43,503 nucleotides of DNA from Candidatus Xenobia bacterium (GTDB taxonomy: Bacteria; Vulcanimicrobiota; Xenobia; Xenobiales; QWHO01). Position 1 is the stretch's first letter. The number at the start of each line of letters is the position of its first letter. Shown here piece by piece: positions 18,691 through 37,079 of the stretch. The translations under genes and the position numbers were made by a program. Below the pieces are notes generated by a model. That model saw only the letters and a list, made by a program, of their open reading frames with translations. It ran no database searches and was not told the DNA's origin. The DNA is taken from the NCBI GenBank assembly GCA_045863235.1, contig BTUM01000067.1, positions 1 to 43,503 on the forward strand. Reading direction: 5' to 3'.

Positions 18691-18739
18691 GTTGGCAGGG
18701 GAGACAGGATTTGAACCCGCGGCCTACGGTTTTGGAGAC
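18691..18739. repeat. att site (49-bp direct repeat; 3' part of tRNA-Trp)
   Basis: GTTGGCAGGGGAGACAGGATTTGAACCCGCGGCCTACGGTTTTGGAGAC, identical to 37031-37079. Confidence 0.95.
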
Positions 18740-18795
18740 AGAAGGCCAATCGGAAAAATCCCAGCAAAATAAAGGTTATAGACGAAGGAGAAAAT

Positions 18796-18818
18796 CCGGT
18801 GTCCATTTAGGTGTCCAT
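18796..18818. repeat. Arm-type integrase binding repeats (GGTGTCCAT x2, 12-bp period)
   Basis: CCGGTGTCCATTTAGGTGTCCAT; matches 36917-36939 at 22/23 positions. Confidence 0.75.
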
Positions 18819-18944
18819 AACAGGAGGTGAGCGGACCTGCGCGGAAGAGAGTCGGGAGAAAAACAGAACCCCGACCCGAAGGCCAGGGCACTGAGTAGCA
18901 CCGTAGTCTTCGCCCGACGGCCGGGAGTTCCCTGGAGGAGCACC

Positions 18945-20126
18945 ATGGCGAAGAAGAACAACCCTGACCGGGGCCTGTATGAGCGCCCCCCCGGAAGCGG
19001 GGTTTGGTGGATCCAGTATAACGACTGCGAGGGCAACAAGAAGCGCGAGAAGGTGGGCACGAAGGCCGCCGCCCGAACCCTCTATCAGAAGCGCCAGACC
19101 GAGAAGCTCCAGGGCAAGAAGCTCCCAGAGCTGACCCCCAGGAAGGCCCTCCTGGTGAGGGACATGATCGAGCGATTCCGCCCCCAGTGGGAGGCCAAGA
19201 AGAGCGCCGCTGATGATCGCCGGTATGCTGCTTACTGGAGCGAGGCCCTGGGAGCGCTGGCCGCCAGCGAGGTGCGCCCCTCTGACATCGAGAGCTGGAG
19301 AGCAAAGCGCCAGAAGGTCGACGGGGTGGCCCCGGCCACCGTCAACAGAGCTGTTGCGTTCTTGAAACGGGTCTACAACCTGGCCATCCGGGACGCCCTC
19401 TTCGAGGGCAGCAACCCCGTGGCGAAGGTCCGGCAAATCCGCGAGAACAACAGCGTCGTGCGCTACTTGAGCGACGAAGAAGAGGCCCTCCTGCGCCCCT
19501 GCTGCTCGCCCGAGCTGTGGCTGAAGGTGGAAATCGCCTACCTGTCCGGCCTGCGCCAGGGCGAGCAATTCGGGCTTCGGCGCAAGGACCTCGACTTCAG
19601 GGCTCGGGTGATTCACGTCCGCGAGAGCAAGCATGGCGAGAGCCGGACCGTGCCCATGAGCGACCGCCTGGCCGAGCTGTTCCGCGCGCAGCTCGATTCC
19701 CATGACGCAGAGTGGGTTTGGCCCGGCGAGGACCCGAGCAAACCCTACCTCAAGACCTCCTCCTACACGGCTCTTCAGCGAGCCTGCAAGAAGGCCGGGC
19801 TCAAGAACTTCCGCTGGCATGACCTCAGGCATACCTTCTGTTCGCGCCTGGCCATGGCCGGCTGTAGTCTGGCTACCATTCAGGCCCTGGCTGGCCACAA
19901 GACGATCACCGTGACCCAACGCTACGCTCACCTGAGCCCCGAGCACAACCGGGCCGCCATGGAGCTGCTGGCCCCGCGCCCGAAGCCCGCGCCCGAGCCT
20001 CCCCTCCCCTGGGGCGACCCCGAGGCCCTGGCGGAGGTGCTCGCTGGCCGGCTGAGTGAGTCCGACCTGGCCGCCCTGGTGGCCGCCCTGGCCCGCCGGG
20101 GGCGACACCTGCGGGTCGTGAGGTGA
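18945..20126 (+). CDS. int: Tyrosine recombinase/integrase
   Basis: GGAGG RBS; SGLRQGE (R), SKHG (K), HDLRHT, LAGH, TQRYAH; adjacent to att. Confidence 0.95.
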   Translation: MAKKNNPDRGLYERPPGSGVWWIQYNDCEGNKKREKVGTKAAARTLYQKRQTEKLQGKKLPELTPRKALLVRDMIERFRPQWEAKKSAADDRRYAAYWSEALGALAASEVRPSDIESWRAKRQKVDGVAPATVNRAVAFLKRVYNLAIRDALFEGSNPVAKVRQIRENNSVVRYLSDEEEALLRPCCSPELWLKVEIAYLSGLRQGEQFGLRRKDLDFRARVIHVRESKHGESRTVPMSDRLAELFRAQLDSHDAEWVWPGEDPSKPYLKTSSYTALQRACKKAGLKNFRWHDLRHTFCSRLAMAGCSLATIQALAGHKTITVTQRYAHLSPEHNRAAMELLAPRPKPAPEPPLPWGDPEALAEVLAGRLSESDLAALVAALARRGRHLRVVR

Positions 20127-20308
20127 AGGTTCGCGAAGTCATCCGAATGCTCGAGGCCGACGGATGGAGACAGACCTCCCAGCGTGGCAGCCACCGTCAA
20201 TTCGAGCACCCGGTAAAGCCTGGCAAAGTAACCGTTCCCGGCAAGCCCGGGGATGAACTTGCGAAGGGGACGGAGAACAGCATTCTCAAGCAGGCAGGGC
20301 TGAAGTAG
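20123..20308 (+). CDS. hicA: HicA-family toxin (mRNA interferase)
   Basis: MKVREVIRMLEADGW...RGSHRQFEHPVKPGKVTVPG...SILKQAGL. Confidence 0.92.
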   Translation: MKVREVIRMLEADGWRQTSQRGSHRQFEHPVKPGKVTVPGKPGDELAKGTENSILKQAGLK

Positions 20309-20322
20309 CCCTCTGAAAGGAG

Positions 20323-20577
20323 TTGAGCAGGATGCAGGTGGCTATCATCATCGAGAGCACGTCAACCGGCTTCTCTGCCTATGCGCCCGAGGTTCCCGGC
20401 TGTGTGGCCACCGGAGCGACACAGGAGGAGTGTATCCGGGAAATGCAGGAGGCGCTGGCCTTCCATTATGAGTCGATGGTTCGGGACGGGGATGACCTGC
20501 CCGACGTGACCGGGGTGGCCTGCGTCATGGTGGACGTGCCCCTCGAGAATCTGCTGGCCGAGCGCGACGCCGCCTGA
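20323..20577 (+). CDS. hicB: HicB-family antitoxin
   Basis: FSAYAPEVPGCVATGATQEECIREMQEAL; directly follows hicA. True start may be ATG 20332. Confidence 0.9.
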   Translation: MSRMQVAIIIESTSTGFSAYAPEVPGCVATGATQEECIREMQEALAFHYESMVRDGDDLPDVTGVACVMVDVPLENLLAERDAA

Positions 20578-20687
20578 CGCTATAGGAAAATGAGCCAAAC
20601 AGAGCAGGTGTTCGCGAGGAGTCACCAGTCTACCTGAAGAAAATTCACCTCGCACAGGCCCTCGTTGCTTCCGAGAAGGAAGCTGGT

Positions 20688-20987
20688 ATGTCCAACAAAG
20701 CGAATAGCTCAAAGCGCTGCGACGAGCGGAAGCGAACCGCTTCGGCGAAGCTCCAGGATCTCGCGGCGACGCTTGCCCAGGCCGGCAAAGCATTCGACCC
20801 GATCCTGGACGTGTTCATGGCCGCCGTCTACACGGGCCGGCACGAGCAGACCCTCCGCGAGGCCGTCCGACAGCGTGAGTTGGCTTGCTGCCGCACAGGC
20901 ACCCGGGGCCACATGCGCTTCCGGCTCTCACACCTCAACGCCTGGTTAGCTCGCCAGGAGCAACGCGCCGCCAGGGTGGCCGGATGA
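20688..20987 (+). CDS. Excisionase-like HTH protein (paralog 1)
   Basis: HEQTLREAVRQREL...RGHMRFRLSHLNAWL aligns with 21577-21792. Confidence 0.65.
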   Translation: MSNKANSSKRCDERKRTASAKLQDLAATLAQAGKAFDPILDVFMAAVYTGRHEQTLREAVRQRELACCRTGTRGHMRFRLSHLNAWLARQEQRAARVAG

Positions 20988-21019
20988 TCGCCGCCGATCT
21001 AGCGATGCTCCTCCTCCAA

Positions 21020-21466
21020 CTACTGGCTCACGGTCAGGTGACCTACGCCCTGCTGCACGGCGCCCGCACACACCGACGCCAGGATCCGGCCTCGGACGCC
21101 GGCGAGGCGGTCGAGCACCTCCAGCGGGTCGGCGTCCGACGCTGTACCGTCCATCACGACCACCGCGCCGAGCGCGCGCCGAAACTCTCGCTCCCCCAGC
21201 TCGCCCACCAGGCCGTCGAGCACTCGGTCAGGGTCTGGGGCTCCGGCTGCAACGAGCGCCCCCAGGAGCGGCAACAGCGAGGCGCGACGAGGGATCACCG
21301 CGTGGTACTCCCAGCGTTTCCATACCGTTTCGGCGATGCCAACCGCCTCCATGTCGCGGAGGGTCAGGCCCAGGCGCTTCCGCACGAGGCCAAAACGATT
21401 GTTTCTTTGAGATTCCTTCAGCATTTTTTCTTTAGTCTCTACGCCATTTTTGGGCTCTTGAGGCAC
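21020..21466 (-). CDS. XRE-family HTH repressor
   Basis: VRKRLGLTLRDM..GIAETVWKRWE...P; divergent from the early operon. Start may be ATG 21424. Confidence 0.7.
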   Translation of the reverse strand: MPQEPKNGVETKEKMLKESQRNNRFGLVRKRLGLTLRDMEAVGIAETVWKRWEYHAVIPRRASLLPLLGALVAAGAPDPDRVLDGLVGELGEREFRRALGAVVVMDGTASDADPLEVLDRLAGVRGRILASVCAGAVQQGVGHLTVSQ

Positions 21467-21576: not shown

Positions 21577-21792
21577 ATGACTGCTGCAGACTTTGACCGT
21601 TGCATCTCGCTCAAAGAGGCCGCTGAGCTGGCCTGTTGCCATCACCAGACCCTGCGCCAAGCCATCAGGCACCGCGAGATCGAGGTCGTGCGCAGGGGGG
21701 GCGTCCGAGGGCACATTTTCATTCGTTTGAGTGCGTTGGATTCGTGGATCAAGCGTACCACGATCCCGGCCTCCAGGGTGGCGGTGGCGTAG
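21577..21792 (+). CDS. Excisionase/AlpA-like HTH protein (paralog 2)
   Basis: GGAGG RBS; ISLKEAAEL...TLRQAIRHREI...IRLSALDSWI. Confidence 0.8.
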   Translation: MTAADFDRCISLKEAAELACCHHQTLRQAIRHREIEVVRRGGVRGHIFIRLSALDSWIKRTTIPASRVAVA

Positions 21793-21977
21793 TGCGAAAA
21801 AATACAGCAGCCGGGCGCATCCTACCTCGCCCGGCCACAGAAACCACCAACAGCCCAAGTGTAGCATACTACGCCGGCATTTGCAAATCTTTCAAGGCCG
21901 CTATGAAAAAGTGCATCGCCTGCCAGTCGCCCGGGTGGATTGACCGGCCGTGCTACTGCGCGCAGGAGGTGGCATGA
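21792..21977 (+). CDS. Small Cys-rich hypothetical protein
   Basis: GTG overlapping the previous stop; CIAC...CYC; its stop overlaps the next ATG. Confidence 0.5.
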   Translation: MRKNTAAGRILPRPATETTNSPSVAYYAGICKSFKAAMKKCIACQSPGWIDRPCYCAQEVA

Positions 21978-23845
21978 GCGAGCCGCCGACCATCATTGCC
22001 GAGCCCCCCGTCCACCGGATGACCCAGCAGGCCCTGCAGGCCCTCGTGGCCAATAACGATCCCCCGACCCTCTATCGGCGGGGACAGTCCCTCGTCCGTC
22101 TGCGCCGAGACACCGAGATCCCCTCCCTGCAGGTTCTCGGGCCGGATGCGTTGCGGGGTGTGCTCGACCGCTCCATCCGCTGGATGCGCCGGACCGCAGG
22201 AGGCGAGCTGAGGCCGACCAGGCCCGACAAGGACGTCGTGGCGGACATCCTGAGCCTGCCAGACCTCGCGATGCTCCCCGCGCTGGACGGGGTGATCACC
22301 GCCCCGGTCTACACCGCCGATGGGCTCCTGCTCCTGGCTCCTGGATACCATGCCGACTCAGGCCTCTGGCTCGAGCTCGGTGACCTCCGAGTGCCCCCCG
22401 TCCCCACCGTCCCCACGCAGGCCCAGGTAGACAGGGCGCGAGGACTCCTCCTCGAGCCGCTGGCCGATTTTCCGCTCGCGGAGAGCGCCAGCCGGGCGCA
22501 TGCCGTCGCCCTGATGTTGCTACCATTCGGGCGCGATTTGGTGGCCGGCCCGACACCCCTGCACCTGGTCGCCAGCCCGACGCAAGGCAGCGGCAAGGGT
22601 CTCCTCGTAGCTGTCGCCAGCGTGATCGCCACCGGCACGACGCCCGAGGTCACGACCTGGCCGACCACTCGCGGCGCAACCGACGAGGCTGAGCTACGCA
22701 AGCGCCTCTGGGCGCACCTCCTGGCCGGGACCAGGATGATCGCACTCGATAACGTGCCGACCGGGCTCGACAGCGCCACCCTGGCCGCCGTCCTCACGGC
22801 CGAAACCTACGCTGACCGGACCCTGGGCGGAAGCACCGTCCCTAGTTGCCCCGTCCGGTGTGTCTGGGCCGCCACGGGCCTGAACCCGACCCTGACCGGG
22901 GAGCTGGCCCGCCGGGCTATCTCGATCCGGCTCGAGCCGTCGGAGGAGGCGCCCTGGGAGAGGCAGGGCTGGCGCCATGCCGACCTGCTCGGATGGTGCC
23001 GGGAGCACCGCGGGGAACTGGTTTGGGCCGGCCTGGTCCTCTGGCGAGCTTGGCTCGCGGCTGGACGGCCGCGCTGGACCGAGCAGACCATGGGGAGCTA
23101 CGCCGCCTGGAGCGAGACCATGGGCGGCGTGCTGGAGGTCGCCGGTATCCCCGGCCTCCTGGGTAACCGTCAGGACATGTGGCAGGCCACCGAGACCGAG
23201 CTGCCAGAGCTCCGGGCGCTCGTGGAAAACTGGTGGGAGGAGCACGGAGAAGCTCAGGTCGAGGTCCGCGCCCTCATCCAACTCTGTAGACGCCGCAGGA
23301 TCCTGGTCGATGTCCTCCATGGCAGGCGCGACAAGACCAAGGCCCTCGGTCGTCTCCTGCGACAGCACTCCGGCCGGGTGGTGGACGTGGGCGGCCTGCG
23401 CCTCCAGATGCGGCTCTCTGGCATGACCCGCACCCGCACCAACCTATGGCGACTCGCGCGCCCACTCCCTGCACCCAACTCCCTGCAGCCAAAACCCATC
23501 CAGGACGCCATTCATGGGCAACAACAAAACTCACCACTGGCCCACTCCCTGCATGACTCCCTGCAAACGGAACCGCTCCGTGTAGCCAAAACTAAGCAAT
23601 CTGCAGGCATTGCAGGGAGTCATGTAACCCCCCCCGCGCGGGAAGAAAATATACATGAGAACCGACATGGTGTCGATCACTCCCTGCAATGCCTGCACCC
23701 GACCCAAAAACCCCGCCAGGACGCCACCCAGGCTGCAGGGAGTGGTGCAGGGAGTGCGCAGGGAGTGGGGGGATCACTCCCTGCAAAGCCTGCACGGAGC
23801 ACATGGAGCCAGCGAGACCAAGAGCAGCTCGAGGGCCTGCTGTGA
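21974..23845 (+). CDS. SF3-helicase-like P-loop replication ATPase
   Basis: GGAGG RBS; Walker A SPTQGSGKG, Walker B MIALDNV, sensor ATGLN, arginine finger LARR. Low-complexity tail overlies the iterons. Confidence 0.75.
   Translation: MSEPPTIIAEPPVHRMTQQALQALVANNDPPTLYRRGQSLVRLRRDTEIPSLQVLGPDALRGVLDRSIRWMRRTAGGELRPTRPDKDVVADILSLPDLAMLPALDGVITAPVYTADGLLLLAPGYHADSGLWLELGDLRVPPVPTVPTQAQVDRARGLLLEPLADFPLAESASRAHAVALMLLPFGRDLVAGPTPLHLVASPTQGSGKGLLVAVASVIATGTTPEVTTWPTTRGATDEAELRKRLWAHLLAGTRMIALDNVPTGLDSATLAAVLTAETYADRTLGGSTVPSCPVRCVWAATGLNPTLTGELARRAISIRLEPSEEAPWERQGWRHADLLGWCREHRGELVWAGLVLWRAWLAAGRPRWTEQTMGSYAAWSETMGGVLEVAGIPGLLGNRQDMWQATETELPELRALVENWWEEHGEAQVEVRALIQLCRRRRILVDVLHGRRDKTKALGRLLRQHSGRVVDVGGLRLQMRLSGMTRTRTNLWRLARPLPAPNSLQPKPIQDAIHGQQQNSPLAHSLHDSLQTEPLRVAKTKQSAGIAGSHVTPPAREENIHENRHGVDHSLQCLHPTQKPRQDATQAAGSGAGSAQGVGGSLPAKPARSTWSQRDQEQLEGLL
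23464..23785. repeat. Iteron cluster (ACTCCCTGCA, 10 copies in both orientations), putative replication origin
   Basis: Direct copies at 23464, 23478, 23544, 23556, 23679, 23776; inverted copies at 23611, 23734, 23746, 23757 (variant). Confidence 0.8.
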
Positions 23846-24588
23846 GGGCCATCCACAGGCACGAACACCTCACCGTTTTCGGGTTAGCCGCCCTGGTCCG
23901 TCTGCTACACAGGCACAACGTCAGTCTCGTCATGCACACCGACCAGCCGGGATACTACCACCTGGCCAAGACCATCGAGAGCAAACCCCTGCTCCTCTGG
24001 ATGCAACCCGAGCCTGTTCGGGAGCTGATTGGGAACTTTCAGGCCGAGATCCGGGCTATGGCGAGGCTCTATGCGACGAGGCCGCCCAGCAACGAGTGGA
24101 CAGACATGCTTGCTCAGCTCGGGGTGCGCATGCAGGTACGCTTTCGCGAGAAAACGTTGTGTGGACTTAGATTGCGCCTCCCTGGATACTACGCGATTCG
24201 GCTCGAGGTGTGGTCAACGCCCAGCTTCCCGAAGCGAAGAAAGGCTGAATTTTGCCAGCAAGGCGCCCCCGCAGCCTCGCGCGCGCCCGAGGACGGCCCA
24301 CCCCAGCGCCGGGAGCACCTGGCCCTGGTCGCCCGAGTGGAGGAGGCTGAGCAGCAACTCGCCGGCCTCTTGGACTGGGGATCCAGGTGGGGAGTGCGTC
24401 CTGACGCCACTCTGGACCCGCTGACAGTTACCCTGGCTGACTGTCGAGCAGCCACTGAATCACTGACGGCCGTCAACAGTCTACCTGCTTCGACATTGAA
24501 CCGTTCTCAACAAACCGGAACCCAAGCAATGACGGCCTTTCAGCCGCCGAACACCGTGAATCTACCTCAAGGAGGCACCCATGACTGA
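23842..24588 (+). CDS. Hypothetical protein
   Basis: GTG overlapping the previous stop (GTGA); 248 aa. Confidence 0.6.
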   Translation: MRAIHRHEHLTVFGLAALVRLLHRHNVSLVMHTDQPGYYHLAKTIESKPLLLWMQPEPVRELIGNFQAEIRAMARLYATRPPSNEWTDMLAQLGVRMQVRFREKTLCGLRLRLPGYYAIRLEVWSTPSFPKRRKAEFCQQGAPAASRAPEDGPPQRREHLALVARVEEAEQQLAGLLDWGSRWGVRPDATLDPLTVTLADCRAATESLTAVNSLPASTLNRSQQTGTQAMTAFQPPNTVNLPQGGTHD

Positions 24589-24952: not shown

Positions 24953-24954
24953 CC

Positions 24955-25554
24955 ATGGGACGTGTCGCTGCTGACGTTCTCCTGGCTCGCCACCGCAAGT
25001 TCGCTGCCCTGGTGGCCCGGGGAGACATCAGCCACGCCGACGCTGCAAAGGCTTGCGGCTACTCGCGCAAGTGGGCCTCCAGGCACGCTTGGAAGCTGAT
25101 CAAGCATCCCGTTGTGGCCGCCGAGATCCAGCGCCTGCAGGAGGAGACTGCTGCCCTCGCCCGGGTCGAGCGGGTGGAGATCGTCGAGGGCCTGCGGGAC
25201 GCCATCGCCCGGGCAAAGGCCGACGCCGAGGCCCAGGCCCTACGGGGCAAGCCGGCCGCCCAGGCCATCGCTGCGGAGGTCAAGGCCTGGGAGCTCCTGA
25301 GCAAGGTCACGGGCCATTTGACGCCGGCCGGCACAACGGTAAACGTCGGAGTCGGCGTCAACGCCGAGAAGGAGCGACCGGTCTACATGGTTTTGTGGGA
25401 GGGCGAGGATGGCCTCCTGGCCCCGAGTCAGCCCTGCCTGCCCGACCCCCGCCCCGAGCCTGTGGAGCCCTGGCTGACCCCGATTCGCCAGCCTCGCACC
25501 GTCGAGGCCAAGATCATCCAACCCGAGGAGGACATCGACTTTGACCGTTTCTAG
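24955..25554 (+). CDS. terS: Terminase small subunit
   Basis: N-terminal HTH ADAAKACGYSRKWASRHAWKLIKHPVVAAEI typical of TerS, then a helical oligomerisation region (KAWELLSKVTG). Confidence 0.75.
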   Translation: MGRVAADVLLARHRKFAALVARGDISHADAAKACGYSRKWASRHAWKLIKHPVVAAEIQRLQEETAALARVERVEIVEGLRDAIARAKADAEAQALRGKPAAQAIAAEVKAWELLSKVTGHLTPAGTTVNVGVGVNAEKERPVYMVLWEGEDGLLAPSQPCLPDPRPEPVEPWLTPIRQPRTVEAKIIQPEEDIDFDRF

Positions 25555-25993
25555 TATCACTTGGACCCAGGGCACGGCCGGCTGTGCCGTCACCATTCGC
25601 CCTCGCCAGAGAGGCCGCACTGCCCGACAACTCGACCGCCTGCTGGTCAACGCCCAAGGAATCGTGACATACTCGCCCTTCGGGGTCGTGGTGGAAAACC
25701 TGGACTATCACCTATCGTTGGCCCTGGTGCGACGCCTGGAGGCCCTCCTCGGCGCCACCGCAACCAAGCCGAATGGGGCGGGACTGACCACCGCCAGGCC
25801 CTGCCAGGATGCCCTCCGGCAGCTCGACCGCCCCGCCCCGCCCGCCCGAGCCCGAGCCCGCCACCGTAGCGGCCACTGCTGGGCGGCACGCCGAGCAGGA
25901 GCCGGGTCTGGAATCGTGCCGGGCCCTGCCCACGTCTCCCCCTGGGTCGGCGGGCTACAGCCGGGCCGCTGGCTGGACCGGGAGGGCGCATGA
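25541..25993 (+). CDS. Hypothetical protein
   Basis: Fills the operon gap with overlapping start and stop. Confidence 0.45.
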   Translation: MTVSSITWTQGTAGCAVTIRPRQRGRTARQLDRLLVNAQGIVTYSPFGVVVENLDYHLSLALVRRLEALLGATATKPNGAGLTTARPCQDALRQLDRPAPPARARARHRSGHCWAARRAGAGSGIVPGPAHVSPWVGGLQPGRWLDREGA

Positions 25994-26691
25994 ACGAGCG
26001 CGACCTCACGACCGCGTTCTTGCGCGGCTGCCGTAGCGTCGGGTTTCACGCGGCTCGCATCCCCGACGCAGGCAAAGCCGACCGCTTCACGACGGTCAAA
26101 CCCTACGATCTAGTCATCGCCACCCCTCCAGGCCGCTATCACGCCGTCGAGCTGAAGCTCGTGACGAAGGGGGCCTCCTGGCCTATTCGAGCACTCCAGC
26201 CCCACCAGGAGGCCGCCCTCCTGGACGCCGAGCGGGTCGGGGCTCCCGGCTGGGTCATTGTCGGGTGGAACGTCCGGCTGAGCGAGCGGGAGCGGGAGCG
26301 CCAGGGCCGGGACGTGGTATCCGGGGCCTGGGCTGCACGCATCCGCCAAGTGGTCCAGGCGAGGGTGGAGGAGGCTCGCACCAACCTGCCCATCCATTGG
26401 TTCGTCCAGCACGCCATTGAACTGCCCCGCCTGGCCCTACGGGGTGAGGACGGGAGCCGGGTGGCCGCCTACGATCCCCGCCCGCTCGTGGCCCGTGTCG
26501 AGACCGGAGCGCCTGCTCCCCCGCCACCCTCGTCGCCAGGCTCAGCGTCCCCTCCTGGACCCTCCCCGGAGCCGAAGGATCCGACGCCCCCCGCGAGGGC
26601 CGAGGGTCCGTCCTTGCCGCCCCCCCGGCCGAAGCCGAGCAGGTGTGACCGTAGCCTGGACCTCTTCCGGCCGCTGGGAGAGTCCGCATGA
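25990..26691 (+). CDS. RecU-like PD-(D/E)xK Holliday junction resolvase
   Basis: RIPD...KPYDLV...HAVELK...LQPHQEAAL pattern; Pro-rich tail. Confidence 0.7.
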   Translation: MNERDLTTAFLRGCRSVGFHAARIPDAGKADRFTTVKPYDLVIATPPGRYHAVELKLVTKGASWPIRALQPHQEAALLDAERVGAPGWVIVGWNVRLSERERERQGRDVVSGAWAARIRQVVQARVEEARTNLPIHWFVQHAIELPRLALRGEDGSRVAAYDPRPLVARVETGAPAPPPPSSPGSASPPGPSPEPKDPTPPARAEGPSLPPPRPKPSRCDRSLDLFRPLGESA

Positions 26692-26882
26692 CGCCGGGGC
26701 TGCCGCTCCCCTCTCCCCTGGTGAGGGACTGTAGCAACTGTGGGAATCTCCAACGGTTCGACCCCCGGCCCGATGAGCCAGCGGCTCAGGGTTGCTCACG
26801 CGAGGGGTGCTATCTGGAGCCATCTGATAAGGCTGTTCACTCAGTGAACACCCCTGGGGGGCACAGAAGGTCGTCTTTCTGA
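26688..26882 (+). CDS. Small Cys-rich protein
   Basis: ATGA overlap; CSNC...CSREGC. Confidence 0.4.
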   Translation: MTPGLPLPSPLVRDCSNCGNLQRFDPRPDEPAAQGCSREGCYLEPSDKAVHSVNTPGGHRRSSF

Positions 26883-26996: not shown

Positions 26997-27272
26997 GTGT
27001 CATCATCCGACTATGAGCCAATGTTTGAGCCCGAGAACAAAGTGCCCGTCAACGTCCGACTCCCGCCTGCTCTGCTCGCCGAGCTGCGGAGGCTATCGCA
27101 CGATCACCTCTGCGTCACCCGTTCCGAGCTGCAACGTGTGGCGACCGAGCTGGGCATCGCCGCGATCAAGCAAGCCCTCGAGCGCGAGGGCATTCGACCG
27201 GGGTCGCCGGGTTGGGAGCAGGCAGCATGGGCGCTGATCTCAGGGCAGGACAGCAAAGCGAGGACAGCATGA
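26997..27272 (+). CDS. Ribbon-helix-helix-like DNA-binding protein
   Basis: AAGGAG RBS; KVPVNVRLPPALLAELRRL...TRSEL. Confidence 0.6.
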   Translation: MSSSDYEPMFEPENKVPVNVRLPPALLAELRRLSHDHLCVTRSELQRVATELGIAAIKQALEREGIRPGSPGWEQAAWALISGQDSKARTA

Positions 27273-28198
27273 GCGAGATTCCCCCGGACATCACGGTGAA
27301 AATCTCCTGGGCGGACATCTTCCCGCCAAAGGACCCGCTCGCCTCATTTCGTGCCGACGTGGAGGCCGCAAAGGCCGAAGTCTACGCGGCTGGCCTGGCC
27401 GTCAACCAGACCCGCGAGGAAATGCCCAATCACCCGATGCTGCCTGTCGCCGAGAATCGGCGCCAGAAGGCCGAGGAAGCCCTGGCCCAGGCCGAGCAGC
27501 GCCTCCAGCGTCAGGAGCAGCGCCTCCAGTCAGAGAGTGCCTGGGCGGGCTACCAGACCCCGGACGTGAGCGCCCTGGAGGCCACCATCCAGGGCGCCCT
27601 CGCCGACCTGGCCGAGGTGGCGTCACAGGCCGAGGGCACCCTGGCCGCCTGGACGGAAGATTGGCAGGTCCGTCGCCAAGCCGCGAGAGAGAACCGCCGC
27701 AACGAATCTTTCCCCCGACCCGCCCTGTCGGACGGGTGGGCTGGCATCCTGGACCACATCGGGGATCTGTTGCGCAAGGGGAAAGCCCTGCAACAGCGCG
27801 CGCCCCACTCCTGGGGAAAGCCCGAGGACCGCGACCCGCTGGACGTGCTGACCGAGGGGGGGCGAATCTCCGAGGACGATCTGGCGATTCCTCGTGTGCG
27901 CAGGGCCGTCCAACAGGCCGAGGAGGCTCGCGCGGCCTGGGATTCGGAACAGACCAAGCTCTTCTGGCAAACCAAGATTCGGGTCAGGGTTCCGCCACCG
28001 CGCTACGATTATCGGGCCGGGTGCTGGGTTCAGACCGGGCCCGATGGGGAGCCTGCCCGCCGCGAGTGGGCCGATACCGGCATTCAGCCAGGCCTCTCGC
28101 GCGAGCGCCAGGTGATCAGCATCTCGGCCAAGAGCAGCCACCGGGAGACCTGGGAGCCTGGCACCGACCGGATGTCTGGCCGCTGGGGGCCAGCGTGA
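27269..28198 (+). CDS. Coiled-coil hypothetical protein
   Basis: ATGA overlap; heptad-rich N-terminal half. Confidence 0.7.
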   Translation: MSEIPPDITVKISWADIFPPKDPLASFRADVEAAKAEVYAAGLAVNQTREEMPNHPMLPVAENRRQKAEEALAQAEQRLQRQEQRLQSESAWAGYQTPDVSALEATIQGALADLAEVASQAEGTLAAWTEDWQVRRQAARENRRNESFPRPALSDGWAGILDHIGDLLRKGKALQQRAPHSWGKPEDRDPLDVLTEGGRISEDDLAIPRVRRAVQQAEEARAAWDSEQTKLFWQTKIRVRVPPPRYDYRAGCWVQTGPDGEPARREWADTGIQPGLSRERQVISISAKSSHRETWEPGTDRMSGRWGPA

Positions 28199-28998
28199 AC
28201 CCCCTTCTGCAGCGTGTGGTTGACCACAGCCTCAATCCCCAGCGTGAAAGGACAAACGAAGTGCACGACCTGATCGTCAACGGAGAGCTGTTTCAGGAGT
28301 CCGAGGCGCGATTCTCGGAAGGTCGCACGGCCAACGGGGTGCCCTATCGAGATGTCCCCGCCCGGCTGTTCTCGGTGGGCGTCCACAACGGGAGAAGCTA
28401 CACTCTGGCCGACCTCCAGGAACTGGCCAGCACCTTCCAGGCTCCCAAGACGGACCTTGAGGACTGGGATGTTCCGATTCAGCTCGACCACTCGAGCAGC
28501 GCTCGAGATACCATCGGCCACGTCAGGAGCGTCAGCGTCCGGGGTAGTGACCTGATGGGTATCCTACGGTTCGTCGGAGAGGACGCGATCAAGCCGGTCC
28601 GTGAGGGACGTTACCGCAAACTTTCGGTGGGCATTCGGCTCACCAAGCCCAAGCGCCTGAAGGAGGTCAGCGCGACCCCGTTCCCGGCGCTGACCAACGC
28701 GGCACTTGCTGCCAGCTTCAATGAGAAAGGCGACACCATGAGCCTGGAAACCAAACTCGACACCATTCAAACCATCTGCGACCGTAAGAAGGCCGAGCTC
28801 GCGGAAAGCCTCTTCGGCGAGGACCGCTATGCCGAAGCCCGACTGAACGGCCAAGCCGACACGTTCGGTCGAGAATATGAGAAGGCCCTCGACGCGATGG
28901 ATGCGGTTCAGACGGAGCTGGTCCAGCAGGCTTTCGCCCAGGAGTCTGAGGAGCAGTTCAGCGACCGCTGGCTCAAAGAGTCGGGCCAGGGTAAGTGA
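28195..28998 (+). CDS. Mu gpI-like prohead protease/scaffold
   Basis: PIQLDH (His), GHV, GRYRKLSVGI (Ser), LKEVSATPFPAL; acidic helical C-terminal third. Confidence 0.75.
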   Translation: MNPLLQRVVDHSLNPQRERTNEVHDLIVNGELFQESEARFSEGRTANGVPYRDVPARLFSVGVHNGRSYTLADLQELASTFQAPKTDLEDWDVPIQLDHSSSARDTIGHVRSVSVRGSDLMGILRFVGEDAIKPVREGRYRKLSVGIRLTKPKRLKEVSATPFPALTNAALAASFNEKGDTMSLETKLDTIQTICDRKKAELAESLFGEDRYAEARLNGQADTFGREYEKALDAMDAVQTELVQQAFAQESEEQFSDRWLKESGQGK

Positions 28999-29132
28999 TT
29001 CAGGTTTCGCGGCCGGGCGTGGCCGCGAAAAGGGAGACCTCCTTCGTCTCAAGGCCGACCCGGCGGGGCTGGTTCTCATACTTGCCAGCCCCGCCGGGGG
29101 AGCCACCTTCGCAACCCGATTGGAGAATGACA

Positions 29133-29345
29133 ATGTGCAAAACGCAGCAGCTCTCGCTGGCCCTCAGCGGTCTCACCCGAGAGCAGGTAAGATTGGCCGT
29201 GGAGGCCGCCTACTGCACCCCCAACCGCAACGTGCCGACCAATGATGACGTGTGGCGCCACGTCCTGGCCAACCAACCGCCGTCGCCTCCCCTCCTGGAT
29301 CCCGTCGCCGCCGCCGAGCGCATCCTGAGGGAGGTTCAGCCATGA
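29133..29345 (+). CDS. Small hypothetical protein
   Basis: GGAGA RBS; stop overlaps the next ATG. Confidence 0.5.
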   Translation: MCKTQQLSLALSGLTREQVRLAVEAAYCTPNRNVPTNDDVWRHVLANQPPSPPLLDPVAAAERILREVQP

Positions 29346-29725
29346 ACGTGACCGTCATCACCCGCCCGAGCATGACCGTCGAGCTGGCCGGCCGGCAGTT
29401 CCGCCTCGAGGAGTTCAGCGTCCCTGGTCTGCAGGCCTATCTCGCCCAGCTCGAGGCCTTGGCCAACCCCGCCCGCTGCGTGGGAGACCACTCCTCGGAG
29501 TCCCTGGCCGAGGCCTTCGACGCCTGGATGGCCGCCCAGGATAGCTTCCTGGCCGCCCTCCTGGCCACCCCTCTGGAGGGGGAGCCACCGACCGCCGAAT
29601 GGGTGCGCGAGCACGTCTCCCTCGAGATGAGGCGGGGCCTGGTCCAGGCCATCGACGAGCTCAATCGTTTGCCCGCTCTGGTGACCGACCTGGCCACCAT
29701 TCGTGAGGTGGCGCGTGGCCGATAG
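29342..29725 (+). CDS. Tail assembly chaperone-like protein (G-like)
   Basis: GGAGG RBS; lies immediately before TMP; TVELAGRQFRLEEFS...EWVREHVS...ELN. Confidence 0.6.
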   Translation: MNVTVITRPSMTVELAGRQFRLEEFSVPGLQAYLAQLEALANPARCVGDHSSESLAEAFDAWMAAQDSFLAALLATPLEGEPPTAEWVREHVSLEMRRGLVQAIDELNRLPALVTDLATIREVARGR

Positions 29726-32700: not shown

Positions 32701-33080
32701 CGCTGCAGTCCTTCGAGGAGGCCTTCGGCCAGGGGAACGGGTTCAACTTTACCGGGGTGGAGCAGTCGAGCTTCGGCCGCAGCGCCCTCCGACCCACGGC
32801 CCCCAAGGTCCCCCGCCTGGAGACCCCCGAGCAGATTCGTCAACGGGTGGCTGCCTCGCAGAAGCCGGGTCAGGCCCAGCTTGCCGATGGCCCCGGGTCT
32901 CGGGTCAGGCCCGACGGGTCGAAGGTCTACAACACCACCATCAGCGTGGACGGCCAGTTCGGGCGCCTGAGCGATCCCGAGGTCAACCGCCTGGTCGATG
33001 CCGTGGTGAACAAGCTGAGCCGCAAAATCGAGCAGAAGCGCCGCACCGGTCCGGCCCCTGGACAGAGCTTCCGTGAGTGA
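29715..33080 (+). CDS. Phage tail tape measure protein
   Basis: ~1121 aa; tape-measure domain (FAAKTPFDVKQV...LEVYG...LADLAAG; QSQTLNGQLSNLAD), Ala/Gly hydrophobic stretch and long coiled coils. Confidence 0.9.
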   Translation: MADSTIPISIKIMATRDSSVGQAIQKTKQDLNALAPGGSSGGGSETAQRRRELEEGKRAAEDFGKTLATGLGAVSVLMAGIGGAAVKIAADFQQSQAQLETVLKSSAAAAETFQEAVQFAAKTPFDVKQVVDATVQLEVYGQRSKEILPLVADLAAGMRKDLGASALVVGKALSGSAEGFESLRNEYGITSAELKRFGAVLNETGGLSLRTSSEIAKAGNALQAIIKRDFSGAIERQSQTLNGQLSNLADTFIRLGNNIGRALIPAVSLGAKGIGILASAVEAIPGPLVSMGASAGLAVAGLAGLGAGGYAATQAVLGLNEKLQAAAAVLPVLQPLAGRVATVLEAAGVKAKAFAQALLSINPALLGIGAATGVAILAVQALDEHYRRLGETIQLQAKTMADNSQGLRELRDLLNSLGGGQVSATSDTSAFFDQLAASIESVPAVELARALEKAGHSSESLKKSLAQNRSEANQYRSALVELKAATEGIANLPGNTVAVPAAARQFFGGRSRASLEEVNQVLEKLNFQFGQLGQRAGAMQSLVDVLEQLSDPMAKLVEDSKSIDGFLKFSRQIGDAQTLQTGLEAVNEQLTKLRSFASEKGIPVDTAGLLNILQTEPGSTRAAFAEELLNKQRAAEDFAEAQQALEEKRVQERVQAIDDGFRREHLSREASLREMIANENEKLNVVQAGSNEELAILERRADLERQLREKGTKRVEEAARSQAQSILDTLDLVKSQSGASSQEAADAYEVVITRLERLGEAYKNTSPELTKFVNEQIKSAKAGRDQALALVPKENFKVLNDSVSEIGAGPTKNTLEELQQVDAQIRLVEQARRRLGAANLDEASTTKLLTQLGQQRLQVEQRIAQARQQAAQELRGLELSAQDQAIQELEARAAAGENVESKLQQARLDRLNLALEAIDAETQAEIEATGLKEEAVSKAELKKTALLRAFSLEQFQRSQASTRDARAQLEQQDQDYARSLDRRRGLANRAGGPQSPLQSFEEAFGQGNGFNFTGVEQSSFGRSALRPTAPKVPRLETPEQIRQRVAASQKPGQAQLADGPGSRVRPDGSKVYNTTISVDGQFGRLSDPEVNRLVDAVVNKLSRKIEQKRRTGPAPGQSFRE

Positions 33081-33729
33081 GCTGACCCGCCGGGTCGTGC
33101 TCGTGGAGGTCGCCGGGCGGAGGTTTCGCATCCAGGAGTTCACCCTGGCCCAGCTCGAGCGGTATCTACAGATGATCCAGGGGGAGCTCGAGGAGGCCTT
33201 TGCCTGGCTACTCCGTCGCCCCCTGGAGGGCTCGCCGCCGTCCCCGGCCTGGGTCAGGGATAACCTCTCGCCGTCCGAAATGCAGGCCCTGCAGGCCCTC
33301 GTGGCCGGGCTGCACGACCTCCAGCCAGCTACTCCGACCGAGAACGAGGGCCCCGGGTGGGCCACGATCATTCACCCCATCGCCGCCGCCTATGGCCTGG
33401 ACCCTCTCCACGTCTGGAAACGGTGGACTTTACGCCAACTCCAGGCCGTCCTCGTCCCGATTCGGGAAGCGCAATGGGACGAGAGCTGCTTCAGGTTGAG
33501 CCTCCACGGATTCAAGCCGCCGGAGAAGCCGGCCCCGGCTCAGCGCAAGCTGACAAAGGAAGAGGAGCAGGAGGCCATCGCGCGCCTGAAGGCTCGCATG
33601 GCCGGCCTGGGCCTGAACAGGAAGCCTGTCGAGCCCGAGGCCATGAAGGCTCGCCTCGCTGAGCAGGGCGTCCAGATTGATGTCGTCGACCCCCTGAAGG
33701 AATCCCGGAAAGGCAGCGCCCGTGGCTAG
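33073..33729 (+). CDS. Second tail-assembly-chaperone-like paralog with C-terminal extension (GT-like)
   Basis: VEVAGRRFRIQEF...PLEGSPPSPAWVRDNLS mirrors 29342-29725; adds IAAAYGLDPLHVWKRWTLRQL. Confidence 0.6.
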   Translation: MSELTRRVVLVEVAGRRFRIQEFTLAQLERYLQMIQGELEEAFAWLLRRPLEGSPPSPAWVRDNLSPSEMQALQALVAGLHDLQPATPTENEGPGWATIIHPIAAAYGLDPLHVWKRWTLRQLQAVLVPIREAQWDESCFRLSLHGFKPPEKPAPAQRKLTKEEEQEAIARLKARMAGLGLNRKPVEPEAMKARLAEQGVQIDVVDPLKESRKGSARG

Positions 33730-34052
33730 TAGCGATGAACCCAGGTTGTCCCGTTCTCGTCGGTGGAGACCTCCGGGAACGGGTCGGCCTCCGGCTCGAA
33801 GTTCATCTCCTGCGTGTATCCAGCGTCCAGGACGCCATGCACCGCTTCCATTGCGAGCATGGCGTGGCTGCCCCAGCCGGGCAGGTCTGCGCTGGGCAGG
33901 CACGGAGGATGGACGGAGCGCGTTCGACCGTTGCACCAGCGGGCGAGGGCTTCCATTGCCGGGTCGCTCCCGGAAAAACGGCCCTCCAGCCATACCAGCT
34001 CGACGGGGAACCCGTGGAGGAAGCCCCGCCAGGTGATCGTTCGGGCGGTCAT
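33726..34052 (-). CDS. Hypothetical protein
   Basis: Coupled to the upstream gene by an ATGA overlap. Confidence 0.55.
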   Translation of the reverse strand: MTARTITWRGFLHGFPVELVWLEGRFSGSDPAMEALARWCNGRTRSVHPPCLPSADLPGWGSHAMLAMEAVHGVLDAGYTQEMNFEPEADPFPEVSTDENGTTWVHRY

Positions 34053-34423
34053 TTCTTCTCGCCGGGCCTCCAGTTTGGGATCCAGGGATGGGGCTTCTCG
34101 GGTGAGGGGACGGAATCATCCGGTGTCGGGTCGGAGGAGACTGGCCGAACGACGACACACAATGGATCGTGAACCTCCAGGCGCCCGGAATGCAAGTCTT
34201 CCAAAAGGTATCGGACCCAACCGGCGTCCTTCACTCGGCGCCTGTCCTTCGGGGCGGCGTCGGGCTTCTCGCCGGCCTTCGTGAGCGCGCGAAGCTCCTC
34301 GCACTCCAATCCCTGGATCCACTTCAGGGTGTCCGGGTTGAGTCGAATCGCCAGCTTCGGGGCGCCCTTGCCTTTGCCCTCGCCGTTGTAGGTTCGCGGT
34401 CGTCCGCCTGGATGTTTCGCCAT
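34049..34423 (-). CDS. Putative DNA-binding protein (GRP motif + RHH-like)
   Basis: MAKHPGGRPR...KLAIRLNPDTLKWI; divergent from the resolvase. Confidence 0.55.
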   Translation of the reverse strand: MAKHPGGRPRTYNGEGKGKGAPKLAIRLNPDTLKWIQGLECEELRALTKAGEKPDAAPKDRRRVKDAGWVRYLLEDLHSGRLEVHDPLCVVVRPVSSDPTPDDSVPSPEKPHPWIPNWRPGEKK

Positions 34424-34524: not shown

Positions 34525-35178
34525 ATGAAAGCCGTCGCTTACGTCCGGGTCAGCACCGAGGACCAAGCCCGCGAAGGAGTCTCCCTGGATGCCCAGACTG
34601 CTCGAATCGAAGCCTACGCAAGCATGGCCGGCCTCGAGCTGGTGGCCGTCGTCCGCGAGGAGGGTGTGAGTGCCGGCAAGCCACTGAAGAACCGCCCGGC
34701 TGGCCGCGAGCTGCTGGCCATCCTCTCTGAGGGCCGGGCTCAGCACGTCGTCGCCCTCACGCTGGCCCGGCTCTTCCGAGACACGGTGGACGCCCTGCAG
34801 GTGGTCCAGGAGTGGGAGCAGGGCAAGATCGCGATGCACCTGGTCGACCTCGGCGGAGTGACCCTCAGAACGGACACCGCGATGGGCAAGATGTTCCTCA
34901 CTTTAGGCGCTGCGTTCGCCGAGCTCGAGCGCAACCTCATCAGCGAGAGGACCCGAGCGGCGCTGCAACACAAGAAAGCATGCGGTCAGAGACTAGGCGC
35001 TAAACCCTACGATAACCAGCGTGGCCTTGATCGCCTGCGCGAGCTGGCCGGCCTGGGCCTGAACCATCGGGACATCGCCCAACGCCTGAACAACGAGGGC
35101 ATACTGGCCCAGCGAGGCGGGCCCTGGTATCACGGGACTGTTTCTCGTGTCCTGGCAAGACTGACCATTCCGGGCTGA
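34525..35178 (+). CDS. Serine recombinase (resolvase/invertase family)
   Basis: GGAGG RBS; AVAYVRVSTEDQ, FAELERNLISERT; C-terminal IAQRLN...PWYHGTV. Confidence 0.9.
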   Translation: MKAVAYVRVSTEDQAREGVSLDAQTARIEAYASMAGLELVAVVREEGVSAGKPLKNRPAGRELLAILSEGRAQHVVALTLARLFRDTVDALQVVQEWEQGKIAMHLVDLGGVTLRTDTAMGKMFLTLGAAFAELERNLISERTRAALQHKKACGQRLGAKPYDNQRGLDRLRELAGLGLNHRDIAQRLNNEGILAQRGGPWYHGTVSRVLARLTIPG

Positions 35179-35255
35179 CGCCCGCCTAGATAGATCCCCG
35201 CCGCACCGCCAGGGAGGCCCTGGTTGGCGCGAGCCATGCCCAAAGGAGAATGCTG

Positions 35256-35396
35256 ATGTCCAAGAAGACCGACGCCGCCACGAAGGCGGCAAGACCCGAG
35301 GTGAAGGAAGCCCCTGTCGAGCAGGCCCTGGCCGAAGTCGAGCTGCTGCGCCGGCAACTGGAGCTGGCCCGGCGATTGGATCCAGGCCATGCATGA
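35256..35396 (+). CDS. Small hypothetical protein (46 aa)
   Basis: AAGGAG RBS; MSKKTDAATK...; overlaps the next start. Confidence 0.45.
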   Translation: MSKKTDAATKAARPEVKEAPVEQALAEVELLRRQLELARRLDPGHA

Positions 35397-36009
35397 CGGA
35401 CTCGAGGCCGAGCTGGCCGCCCAGCTCACCGCCATCACCGCCGAGCACGCCGACCTCATCCGCCCTGGACTCTGCCGCGGGACTCACCGCAATGGCAAGC
35501 CCTGCAAGCGGCCTGTCGTGAGCAAAGAGGAGGCACGTCGCTGCCAGAGGTTGGGCCATCCCATCCCTGAGAGGAATCTTTGCCGTGCTCACGCCGACAA
35601 AGCACGCCGGGCCAAGAGCAAAGCACCTCGCCGGTTGGAACCCTCCCCGGAAACAGAGGAAGCAATGGTTGTCCGTTTCCTTCATTTGCTCAAGCGCCTG
35701 ATTGCCTCATACCGCGCAGCCTACCCAGAGACCAAGTGTGACGCCACATTTGACGATTTCACGCTTGCGATCCTCGTATACTACGGTTGGAGGTTGAGTG
35801 TAAATCCATCCACGAAAGCGCGCGCCAATGTTTGGCGCGCCACCGACCGCCACATCTATGTGGACATGAACCCAGAACAGCCAGATTGGCTGTTTGCGAT
35901 GGAAGTGAGCTTGGCCTACGTCGTGCATGAATTGGAGGGCAAGAAGGTCAAGAGGGAGGAGTTCCCGGCTTTCCGCGCGGCATTGAGGCTTGTCTGGGAG
36001 TTTGACTGA
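35389..36009 (+). CDS. Hypothetical protein with C-x8-C...C-x2-H zinc-binding motif
   Basis: CRGTHRNGKPC...LCRAH; lower-GC 3' half. Confidence 0.6.
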   Translation: MHDGLEAELAAQLTAITAEHADLIRPGLCRGTHRNGKPCKRPVVSKEEARRCQRLGHPIPERNLCRAHADKARRAKSKAPRRLEPSPETEEAMVVRFLHLLKRLIASYRAAYPETKCDATFDDFTLAILVYYGWRLSVNPSTKARANVWRATDRHIYVDMNPEQPDWLFAMEVSLAYVVHELEGKKVKREEFPAFRAALRLVWEFD

Positions 36010-36031
36010 CACACTTGGGGAGCACACCCTC

Positions 36032-36063
36032 AGCCCTCCGGGAGACCGGGGGGCTCTTTCTTT
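36032..36063 (+). terminator. Intrinsic terminator
   Basis: AGCCCTCCGG-GAGA-CCGGGGGGCT then CTTTCTTT. Confidence 0.7.
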
Positions 36064-36524
36064 GGCGCCGAAACGCAACCGCCCCCAGTGACGGGGGCGG
36101 AAGACTCGCCGAGATGGCCCAGCTCCTGACCGAGATGGGGTTCCAGGTGGAGGGTGTTGTGCGTTGAACACACAGCTGCGGTGGCCAGACGTTCGTGTGC
36201 ACTGAATGCACACGAACCCTGCTCATGGGCCCGCCCCCACTGGGACAAAGCCGGTGTCATCCCTGCGAAGGCTGTTCTCGGCGACGTGACCCGTGAGCAC
36301 TGACCGCTTCAAGCCCGCCTGGACAGCGCCCGAGCGGCCCTCGCCTGCCCGGCCTGCGCGCTCCAGAAAGCAGAGTGTTCGGCGGGAGATCAAGAGGTGA
36401 CCGTCGAATCCGATACACCTGCAGCCCGTTCAGTGGGCATAGCGTAGCGTAGCACAGCGAAGAGGTTCACGCCGAATAACGATCCAACCAACACGGGCAG
36501 CAAGATCACCACGGAGGTATCCCC

Positions 36525-36722
36525 ATGGAATCTGCGCTGTCAAACCCCAGGCCGGTCAGAGTCTCTTTCACGAGGCGAAGCCTCGCCAGAGTCAACGTCA
36601 CCATCGTCAACCAGAATGGTCTGAAATGCGACCAGTGCGGGCAGATTTGGTACCCCACGAAGTTGCCGTTGAGAGGAACTTGGTGGGAATGCCCGACTCG
36701 CGGCTGTAACAAGCCCGAGTAG
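36525..36722 (+). CDS. Small zinc-ribbon protein
   Basis: GGAGGT RBS; CDQCG...ECPTRGC; followed by a terminator. Confidence 0.6.
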   Translation: MESALSNPRPVRVSFTRRSLARVNVTIVNQNGLKCDQCGQIWYPTKLPLRGTWWECPTRGCNKPE

Positions 36723-36746
36723 TTCAGTGGAGGCGTGAACCAGACG

Positions 36747-36777
36747 GCCCCCGGAAGAACCCGGGGGCTTTTTCTTT
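36747..36777 (+). terminator. Intrinsic terminator
   Basis: GCCCCCGG-AAGAAC-CCGGGGGC then TTTTTCTTT. Confidence 0.75.
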
Positions 36778-36916
36778 ACGGGTGGAAGTTTGGGAAAAAA
36801 GACCGTAAAAGACCGTAGGCATCTTGCGCCCCGTCAAGCTAAGCGAAAAAGCGGGCGGCGAATCATGGGATTCAAGCCAAATTCACACTCCTGGTATGTC
36901 AGACCTCTACCTCTGG

Positions 36917-36939
36917 CCGGTGTCCATTTTGGTGTCCAT
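36917..36939. repeat. Arm-type integrase binding repeats
   Basis: CCGGTGTCCATTTTGGTGTCCAT; matches 18796-18818. Confidence 0.75.
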
Positions 36940-37002
36940 TCCCCCGCTCAAAAGGACTCTTTTCGACTCACTTTCGCTCACCAGAGAGGAAACCCCGAGA
37001 AG

Positions 37003-37030
37003 CAGAAAACCCGCTCTGTGGCGGGTTTTC
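37003..37030 (-). terminator. Element-supplied terminator for tRNA-Trp
   Basis: GAAAACCCGC-N6-GCGGGTTTTC hairpin just 3' of the tRNA. Confidence 0.65.
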
Positions 37031-37079
37031 GTTGGCAGGGGAGACAGGATTTGAACCCGCGGCCTACGGTTTTGGAGAC
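37031..37079. repeat. att site (49-bp direct repeat)
   Basis: Identical to 18691-18739. Confidence 0.95.

Follow-up and report, generated by a model that had tools for sequence, protein, structure and literature searches.

We describe an integrated element of 18,389 bp in a 43,503-nucleotide stretch of DNA from a Candidatus Xenobia bacterium (contig BTUM01000067.1 of assembly GCA_045863235.1, positions 1 to 43,503; hereafter the window), and we consider it probable that this element is a satellite of temperate siphophages with Mu-type heads which makes chimeric tails. Its integration between attachment (att) repeats, its gene content, the kinship of its protease, G, T and tape measure protein (TMP) genes with those of prophages, the action of purifying selection and a layout in which the TMP gene stands between a chaperone gene G and a G-T fusion gene (G-TMP-GT) are directly observed. 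An original prediction, made from the sequence alone, had called the element a satellite and not a prophage. This agrees with what we found: the closest homolog is also capsid-less, and the capsid-encoding prophages among the loci that we fetched are only ~27-44% identical.

Boundaries and gene content of the element

As predicted, the element lies between identical repeats, which are 49 bp long, both of which correspond to the 3′ end of a tRNA-Trp gene that remains intact (Table 1). A congeneric genome (G004) has a probable empty site, the matching left flank of which spans only ~110 bp. The coding fraction is 0.90, and of the 13 junctions from 21974 to 33729, 12 either overlap or are separated by ≤2 bp, as expected of the tightly coupled operon that had been claimed. 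The host, with a GC content of 64-70%, probably belongs to the Vulcanimicrobiota (Eremiobacterota), judging from homologs labelled 'bacterium CPR1' and 'Vulcanimicrobiota bacterium'. PHROG and Pfam family scans of the 27 open reading frames (ORFs) identified a tyrosine integrase, HicA/HicB, two xis-like HTH_17 proteins, a TerS, a head protease, a TMP and a serine resolvase; weaker matches were to a CII-like regulator and a Holliday-junction resolvase, and there is an Arc-like and a primase-family ORF. The integrase, TerS, TMP and two chaperone-like genes named in the original prediction are all present. Two further assignments held in part. The xis-like proteins and iterons were found, but the repressor match is weak (E 0.009) and the replication ORF has no primase domain; similarly, the head protease is a phrog_976 member, but its scaffold part is shortened. 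To say that the element shows no obvious decay was for these reasons slightly too strong.

The claim that virion shell and lysis genes are missing was upheld. None of the 27 ORFs matched a capsid, portal, TerL, tail tube, baseplate, holin or lysin family in PHROG, whereas capsid, portal, TerL and tube were all recovered from related prophages as a positive control (26 control ORFs). An unfiltered search of all 339 six-frame segments of the element against 34 proteins, including the portal, capsid, TerL, tube, adaptor, neck, Dit and hub of related and resident prophages, gave no real structural match and no scraps of shell genes; its matches were two integrases, one primase and one chance out-of-frame segment of 38 aa (E 0.008). 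Hub and Dit had no match with these lineage-matched queries, orphan ORFs remaining in the element, and neither PHROG nor the lineage-matched queries found a head-to-tail adaptor. The sole orphan with size enough for a capsid is ORF 27269 (309 aa). Its AlphaFold model consists of long helices (pLDDT 70, pTM 0.29) and gives no sign of a capsid fold; Foldseek and VIA-align returned generic coiled-coil or hairpin matches (best Z 10.6 over 76 residues), with no capsid or satellite scaffold among the matches listed, and the ESM Atlas yielded no usable match for this ORF or for ORF 23842 (best TM by query 0.31 and 0.29). Two clear homolog clusters of ORF 27269 (P0007 and P0008) were found among 1.8 billion representatives. 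Both carry an N-terminal extension, which is ribbon-helix-helix-like in P0008, and the two ORFs of 26997-28198 apparently correspond to one fused protein in these distant homologs. Contigs from other samples also run from the protease to chaperone G with no capsid between them (66 differences in 1.7 kb).

The G-TMP-GT cassette

Translation of the TMP most likely begins at GTG 29715, which moves the start originally given and makes a protein of 1,121 aa. It is ~30-33% identical to prophage TMPs over most of its length and matches the TMP of an IMG/VR phage with an E value of 5e-93. The downstream G-T (ORF 33073) is a paralog of the stand-alone G (ORF 29342), with copies that are 89-91% identical elsewhere; neither ORF contains a slippery heptamer, and a single-sequence AlphaFold model of G-T reached a pLDDT of 43, too low to be informative. 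Six related prophages are organised differently, with G and T in different frames and both upstream of TMP; of five that were checked, four carry GGGAAAC or GGGAAAA close to the end of G. The same G-TMP-GT order recurs in a capsid-less 18.0-kb element (G013:C1) whose TMP is only 33% identical to that studied here. A T profile run against 301 genomes gave 10 matches, eight of the ten genomes matched having supplied its seeds: seven are split-frame genes next to a tube gene, two (this element and G013:C1) combine G, TMP and a fused GT without a tube gene, and the tenth is a fused gene in G065. The G-TMP-GT order is not derivable by deletion alone.

In phage lambda, G is described as binding TMP and T as binding the tube protein, with a G:GT ratio of 30:1 that is crucial (PMC5009743). 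According to PMC10885494, which cites Vladimirov 2022, some T4-like phages carry G and a fused GT as two genes; by analogy, this suggests that the G-TMP-GT arrangement can be functional. We found no description of this arrangement in a satellite in the literature. A scan of genome contigs with the TMP as query confirmed none of 107 candidates, and one of viral contigs with G-T as query none of 11. In the capsid and tube cluster at L105:7141-12851, on a contig of 14.6 kb (G065:C82), an in-frame G-T fusion follows a 369-aa orphan, and no TMP match was found on that contig.

Closest relative and selection

The closest relative (L079) is a capsid-less element of 13.4 kb between 50-bp repeats at tRNA-Gln. 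It is 88% identical in TerS, 95% in TMP, 91% in G-T and 75% in integrase, but carries another replication module (DnaB and O-like). Ratios of nonsynonymous to synonymous substitution (dN/dS) between the two are 0.19 for TMP (0.09 for its C-half), 0.15 for G-T and 0.16 for TerS, with dS of 0.3-0.5 and Fisher p ≤2e-12. TMP, G-T and TerS are thus under purifying selection and, with values of 0.09-0.25 over these genes and the integrase, relaxed selection is not borne out.

A wider set of TMP loci

Homologs of the TMP occur in 19 of 61 genomes. Besides the window we located 23 TMP places, of which 12 are near head or tail genes and seven are in small elements without them, the remaining four being on contigs that are too short or unexamined. 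Six att-bounded capsid-less elements from five relatives measure 13.2-26.3 kb, four of them 17.7-18.2 kb; all have an integrase and a TMP, and five have a primase or helicase match. Capsid, portal, TerL and tube were absent from the 170 ORFs scanned in these six elements, which had been picked by length and codon filters and clipped at locus borders. Within the same six, TerS is clear only in that of G007 and the Mu-type head protease was absent.

Prophages of the putative helper type and other elements of the genome

The prophages that share the protease and chaperones with the element (G030:C6, G017:C57 and G005:C30) have a phrog_113 portal and a phrog_29 capsid; G030 additionally has a phrog_807 tube, and none of them showed a sheath. 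An IMG/VR contig (L102) holds the whole Mu-head siphophage module. On the strength of these shared genes, we take this family of temperate siphophages, whose TMPs are ~1,150-1,410 aa long, as the putative helper type. The G030:C6 prophage (L033-L034) measures just 25.4 kb and is bounded by 88-bp repeats. Its TerL frame is short, it contains an insertion sequence, no replication genes were seen, and it is probably itself defective. A decayed remnant of the helper type (G001:C192; L050:17872 to L051:2925) retains the protease, a decoration protein, a truncated capsid and TMP scraps, one of which, on the opposite strand, has 58 aa that are 93% identical to the C-terminus of the element's TMP.

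Homologous capsid-less elements and a co-resident prophage, both relevant to the original prediction, were found, although the prophage is of a different family. It is an apparently complete siphoprophage of 53.9 kb (G000:C1:153120-207015; L002-L004) with a 77-bp att at tRNA-Phe, an HK97-type head, TerL, portal, protease, capsid, tube and a 1,004-aa TMP, and an 8.2-kb integrase-helicase element lies in tandem behind it at the same tRNA-Phe att. It could still conceivably serve as a helper, because the TMPs of the satellites known as PICI-like elements (PLEs; PICI, phage-inducible chromosomal island) are also reported to be just 20% identical to the helper's (PMC12987554). The idea that the element, at one third of the size of this prophage, derives support from that proportion was dropped given the difference in family. 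Searches of the same genome for phrog_113 and phrog_807 gave no match, yet the positive controls also gave none.

Two more capsid-less elements are present in this genome: G000:C38:1-14300 (L006), one end of which is the contig end, and the 14.8-kb C72:3504-18377 (L007). Both contain an integrase, replication genes, an HK97-type protease domain, coiled-coil ORFs and a TMP, and their TMPs are 33% identical to each other over the C-terminal 650 aa. A small protein beside the TMP, considered as common to all three co-resident elements, was rejected (E ~0.005; hidden Markov model (HMM) convincing only for its seeds and the sibling L079). An 11.7-kb integrase element with a 45-bp att at tRNA-Lys (G000:C30:2799-14517; L008) has no TMP match. 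At a contig end, G000:C28:71-1020 (L074) repeats the integrase end together with HicAB at 82% DNA identity and possibly belongs to a further related element.

Contrary evidence and alternative explanations

Several observations limit or weigh against interpretation as a satellite with its own tail genes. No excision was seen, in that no attP or empty-site joint is among the 15 joints listed (of 36), all of which were read from assembled contigs, the RNA-labelled run carrying no expression readout. This assembly, which is 97.6% complete, yielded no helper of the matching family, and the TMP and chaperone of the resident 53.9-kb prophage gave no match to those of the element. The TerS gives no pairwise alignment with helper-type TerS and shares with it only the PHROG family. 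The replication ORF is without the N-terminal primase domain that most relatives have; its alignment begins at residue 314 of an 826-aa prophage homolog, and 17 of 68 homologs, several of them partial, also have little N-terminal extension. The in-frame G-T fusion of G065:C82 lies within a capsid and tube cluster, so fusion is not specific to satellites. The sibling L079 lacks the equivalent of window positions 25725-30105, an in-frame deletion of 4.4 kb that takes out the protease, G and the N-terminus of the TMP. Two of four runs, from two studies, contain this joint beside full-form contigs. This circulating deletion form means either that G and the protease are dispensable or that the family is decaying, and the L079 comparison shows a live family and ongoing loss together. 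In a TMP-domain tree of 20 rows, the capsid-less elements are scattered among prophages (five changes; monophyly in 0 of 200 bootstraps), and two of them have a prophage as a well-supported sister; left out of this tree were the TMPs of C72 and the C1 prophage (no domain match), G011:C5, G057:C88, G057:C27, G001 and G039. Repeated reduction would explain the scatter as readily as repeated capture. Finally, the TMP of G019 looks split into two frames.

A persistent TMP and G-T under selection, even in the variant that has lost G and the TMP N-terminus, would also be expected of a mobile defence island that jams tails, with both proteins acting mainly as dominant-negative decoys that would sequester the tail tube protein or initiator of an invader, so that tailless particles result, and not entering satellite virions. 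We regard this as unlikely. A free G-T gene could far exceed the share of GT in the lambda ratio, and interference with tail assembly is described in published work (PMC11364771, PMC10884400), but the TMP is full length with its C-half best conserved, G, TerS and the origin-like cluster fit particle building, and HicA was the lone match when PADLOC was run on 13 ORFs. The defence and satellite roles can, in any case, coexist.

It is more doubtful still that the element is a defective prophage, namely the decaying remains of a Mu-head siphophage from which deletions removed the terL, portal, capsid, neck, tube, tip and lysis genes. Integrase, xis, primase family, protease, chaperone and TMP homologs are held in common with the G017 prophage, and the missing primase domain and scaffold part, the further deletion in the sibling, the true remnant at G001:C192 and the polyphyletic TMP tree all point in this direction. 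Such a history would need at least three clean deletions together with duplication of a chaperone, fusion of frames and a move behind the TMP, and the same layout is seen in a distant element. The lack of shell pseudogene scraps, the coupled junctions and the strong selection between two capsid-less copies with different tRNA sites and replication modules likewise argue against it.

We attach very little probability to a third alternative, in which the family was once active as a satellite and this copy is replication-defective, leaning on a co-resident element or helper. The absent primase domain and the lack of an attP joint among the 15 joints listed would fit, as would the primase or helicase in other integrated elements of the genome. 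Against this, the iteron cluster is intact, stand-alone forms of the replication protein occur on long contigs (P0057, P0041), and a partial copy that is 96% identical exists elsewhere (P0022). All 10 copies of the 9-bp iteron motif in the window fall within 321 bp, where 0.92 are expected and 10 were reached in 0 of 100 shuffles; the cluster is a probable origin of replication, judging from the motif.

Other features

Coordinates of the features are collected in Table 1. No AlpA match was found among the 27 ORFs by PHROG or Pfam, the regulators being HTH_17 xis-like or weakly CII-like. In the head protease the His and Ser columns, which we take to be the catalytic residues, are invariant; it is without a ~75-aa conserved scaffold block present in homologs of 348-432 aa, although its extreme C-terminus is similar to that of two close homologs, and a PDB search with the protease profile gave one chance match. 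A 75-bp deletion joint at window 26812-26888, seen in three of four runs, removes the end of the 64-aa ORF. Outside the element, a tandem 62-bp duplication (window 1-124 and 196-267) at the contig start, beside tRNA-Gln, could reflect either the edge of the assembly or the terminus of a further element. Window 5612-7207 contains six diverged 48-bp repeats, the spacing of which, we assume, resembles that of WD40-type protein repeats.

Table 1. Features of the integrated element, in window coordinates, with supporting matches.
Feature	Position	Strand	Evidence and remarks
att repeat, integrase end	18691..18739	.	duplicates tRNA-Trp 3′ end; 49 bp identical to 37031-37079
Tyrosine integrase	18945..20126	+	PF00589 3.7e-33; phrog_1 2e-72; dN/dS 0.25 vs sibling L079
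HicA-HicB toxin-antitoxin pair	20123..20577	+	PF07927 5e-24; PF15919 4e-9
xis/HTH_17 regulator 1	20688..20987	+	PF12728 8e-8; dN/dS 0.18
Divergent repressor-like ORF	21020..21466	-	weak phrog_4836, E 0.009 (CII-like)
xis/HTH_17 regulator 2	21577..21792	+	PF12728 2e-6
Replication protein, C-terminal part of primase-helicase family	21974..23845	+	phrog_10537 8e-79; phrog_19930 6e-33
Iteron cluster, probable replication origin	23464..23784	.	9-bp motif, both orientations
Two orphan ORFs, 248 and 123 aa	23842..24952	+	62-64% identical in L079; dN/dS ~0.5; no family
Terminase small subunit TerS	24955..25554	+	phrog_51 2e-12; PF03592 4e-5; dN/dS 0.16
Orphan ORF 25541	25541..25993	+	first 62 aa conserved, dN/dS 0.12; joined in frame to TMP in deletion variant
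Holliday-junction-resolvase-like ORF and 64-aa Cys-rich ORF	25990..26882	+	phrog_843 8e-4
Ribbon-helix-helix ORF and 309-aa coiled-coil ORF 27269	26997..28198	+	phrog_4738; homologs P0007/P0008
Mu gpI-type head protease, shortened scaffold region	28195..28998	+	phrog_976, E 4e-15 / 9e-16
Orphan ORF 28995, 116 aa	28995..29345	+	no family match
Chaperone G, stand-alone, no T frame	29342..29725	+	HMM of 6 prophage G proteins, E 3e-13, 117,880 segments
TMP, 1,121 aa	29715..33080	+	phrog_1272 4e-12
G-T fusion chaperone, in frame, downstream of TMP	33073..33729	+	G HMM 9e-7 and T HMM 1e-11
Two small convergent ORFs	33726..34423	-	both in sibling L079, 89% and 40%
Serine resolvase/invertase	34525..35178	+	PF00239 1e-32; also in sibling, G004 and G007 elements
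Three accessory ORFs	35250..36722	+	ORF 35389 N-terminus common to an ORF of C72 element
att repeat inside tRNA-Trp	37031..37079	.	49 bp identical to 18691-18739
tRNA-Trp, intact integration target	37033..37109	-	ARAGORN

Discussion

If the element is a satellite of Mu-head siphophages, induction of or infection by the helper would lead to its excision and to replication from the iteron cluster, after which the satellite TerS would direct helper TerL onto satellite DNA, as in PICIs. Satellite G would coat its own TMP and G-T would join that complex to the helper tail tube protein, so that helper tube and tip proteins polymerise around the satellite TMP into chimeric tails, as in PLE. The G:GT ratio would be fixed by two separate genes with no frameshift. 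Tail length scales at ~0.15 nm per TMP residue, which by simple arithmetic would give a satellite tail of ~168 nm, within the 165-170 nm of the original prediction. Least certain is the possibility that the shortened protease-scaffold acts on helper procapsids, perhaps shrinking them. The shortened scaffold recalls CpmB of PICIs, described as competing with the helper scaffold, but a size switch on this analogy is a weak possibility because the protease gene is dispensable in the sibling. Of the three points of hijack originally envisaged (packaging, head assembly and tail length), the tail arm is best supported, by TMP, G and G-T and by the selection on TMP and G-T; packaging through TerS is plausible; and the head arm is weak because the protease is deleted in the sibling and absent from the six relatives' elements.

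The scattered TMP tree led us to regard the capsid-less elements as a convergent guild rather than one clade. More tentatively, satellites throughout this order of an uncultured phylum could form a guild that has a captured TMP, and not a capsid remodeller, as its core tool, one lineage having turned the G/GT frameshift into two genes flanking the TMP. We would equally hold only as a possibility that the rewired tail initiator outcompetes that of the helper for tube protein, and that the three elements in this genome exploit at least two helper types. If true, this would account for the selective assembly of a satellite's own TMP into tails. A compact cassette of three genes (G, TMP and G-T) for a non-contractile tail, in which the G:GT ratio is uncoupled from frameshifting, makes such selective incorporation testable. 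Our results also suggest that TMP-carrying satellites are common in this phylum and that detection tools which forbid tail genes will miss them.

The original description of a distinct satellite type was overstated, since TMPs are already reported in PLEs, PLE-like elements and some capsid-forming PICIs (cf-PICIs) (PMC12987554) and in the EPIPs of Mycolicibacterium aichiense (PMC12822802, a preprint). The PLE, a satellite of phage ICP1 in Vibrio cholerae with a reported median length of 17.7 kb (PMC10085698), is like the element in being integrated, ~18 kb long and capsid-less, with its own TMP and a tail chaperone that are related only distantly to the helper's. It places its own TMP in helper tails, which are thereby chimeric, and the account in PMC12987554 leaves the mechanism of selective incorporation open. 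As described, the PLE differs in its baseplate hub gene, lytic contractile-tailed helper and Vibrio host, whereas the element has a putative temperate siphophage helper, a TerS, a head protease and a chaperone gene on either side of the TMP, and no hub match; the distinction is drawn from the published description of PLE. EPIPs are also small, with a TMP, a TerS, a scaffold-type gene and a temperate helper, and are described without tail tube or holin. They are unlike the element in their size of 11 kb, serine integrase and head-to-tail adaptor and stopper, and no tail chaperones appear in the text of that preprint; in the element the integrase is of the tyrosine type, G and G-T are present, and no adaptor match was found.

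PICIs, including the staphylococcal pathogenicity islands (SaPIs), resemble the element in their integrase, divergent regulators, replication gene with origin-like repeats and TerS, as outlined in PMC10085698 and PMC5644958. Tail genes are, however, 'forbidden' in the PICI model of SatelliteFinder as described, whereas TMP, G and G-T are central here, and cf-PICIs differ in having their own capsid, portal and TerL, none of which was found in the element by the 27-ORF scan or the six-frame search. The Mu-head siphoprophages found in the same bacterial order (G030:C6, G017:C57 and G005:C30) and the L102 contig share with it the phrog_976 protease, G, T and TMP, and L102 also a TerS of the same PHROG family. 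Unlike the element, they encode TerL, a phrog_113 portal, a phrog_29 capsid, neck and tip genes (and, in G030 and L102, the phrog_807 tube), and keep G and T in different frames upstream of TMP. The element therefore resembles PLEs and EPIPs in tail piracy and PICIs in packaging, yet departs from each in a defining feature. We found no TMP-carrying satellites described for this phylum in the literature available to us. TMP-carrying satellites as such were already known, and hybrid tails have been described for a few of them; what is added here is the G-TMP-GT cassette, the evidence of selection and the order-wide occurrence.

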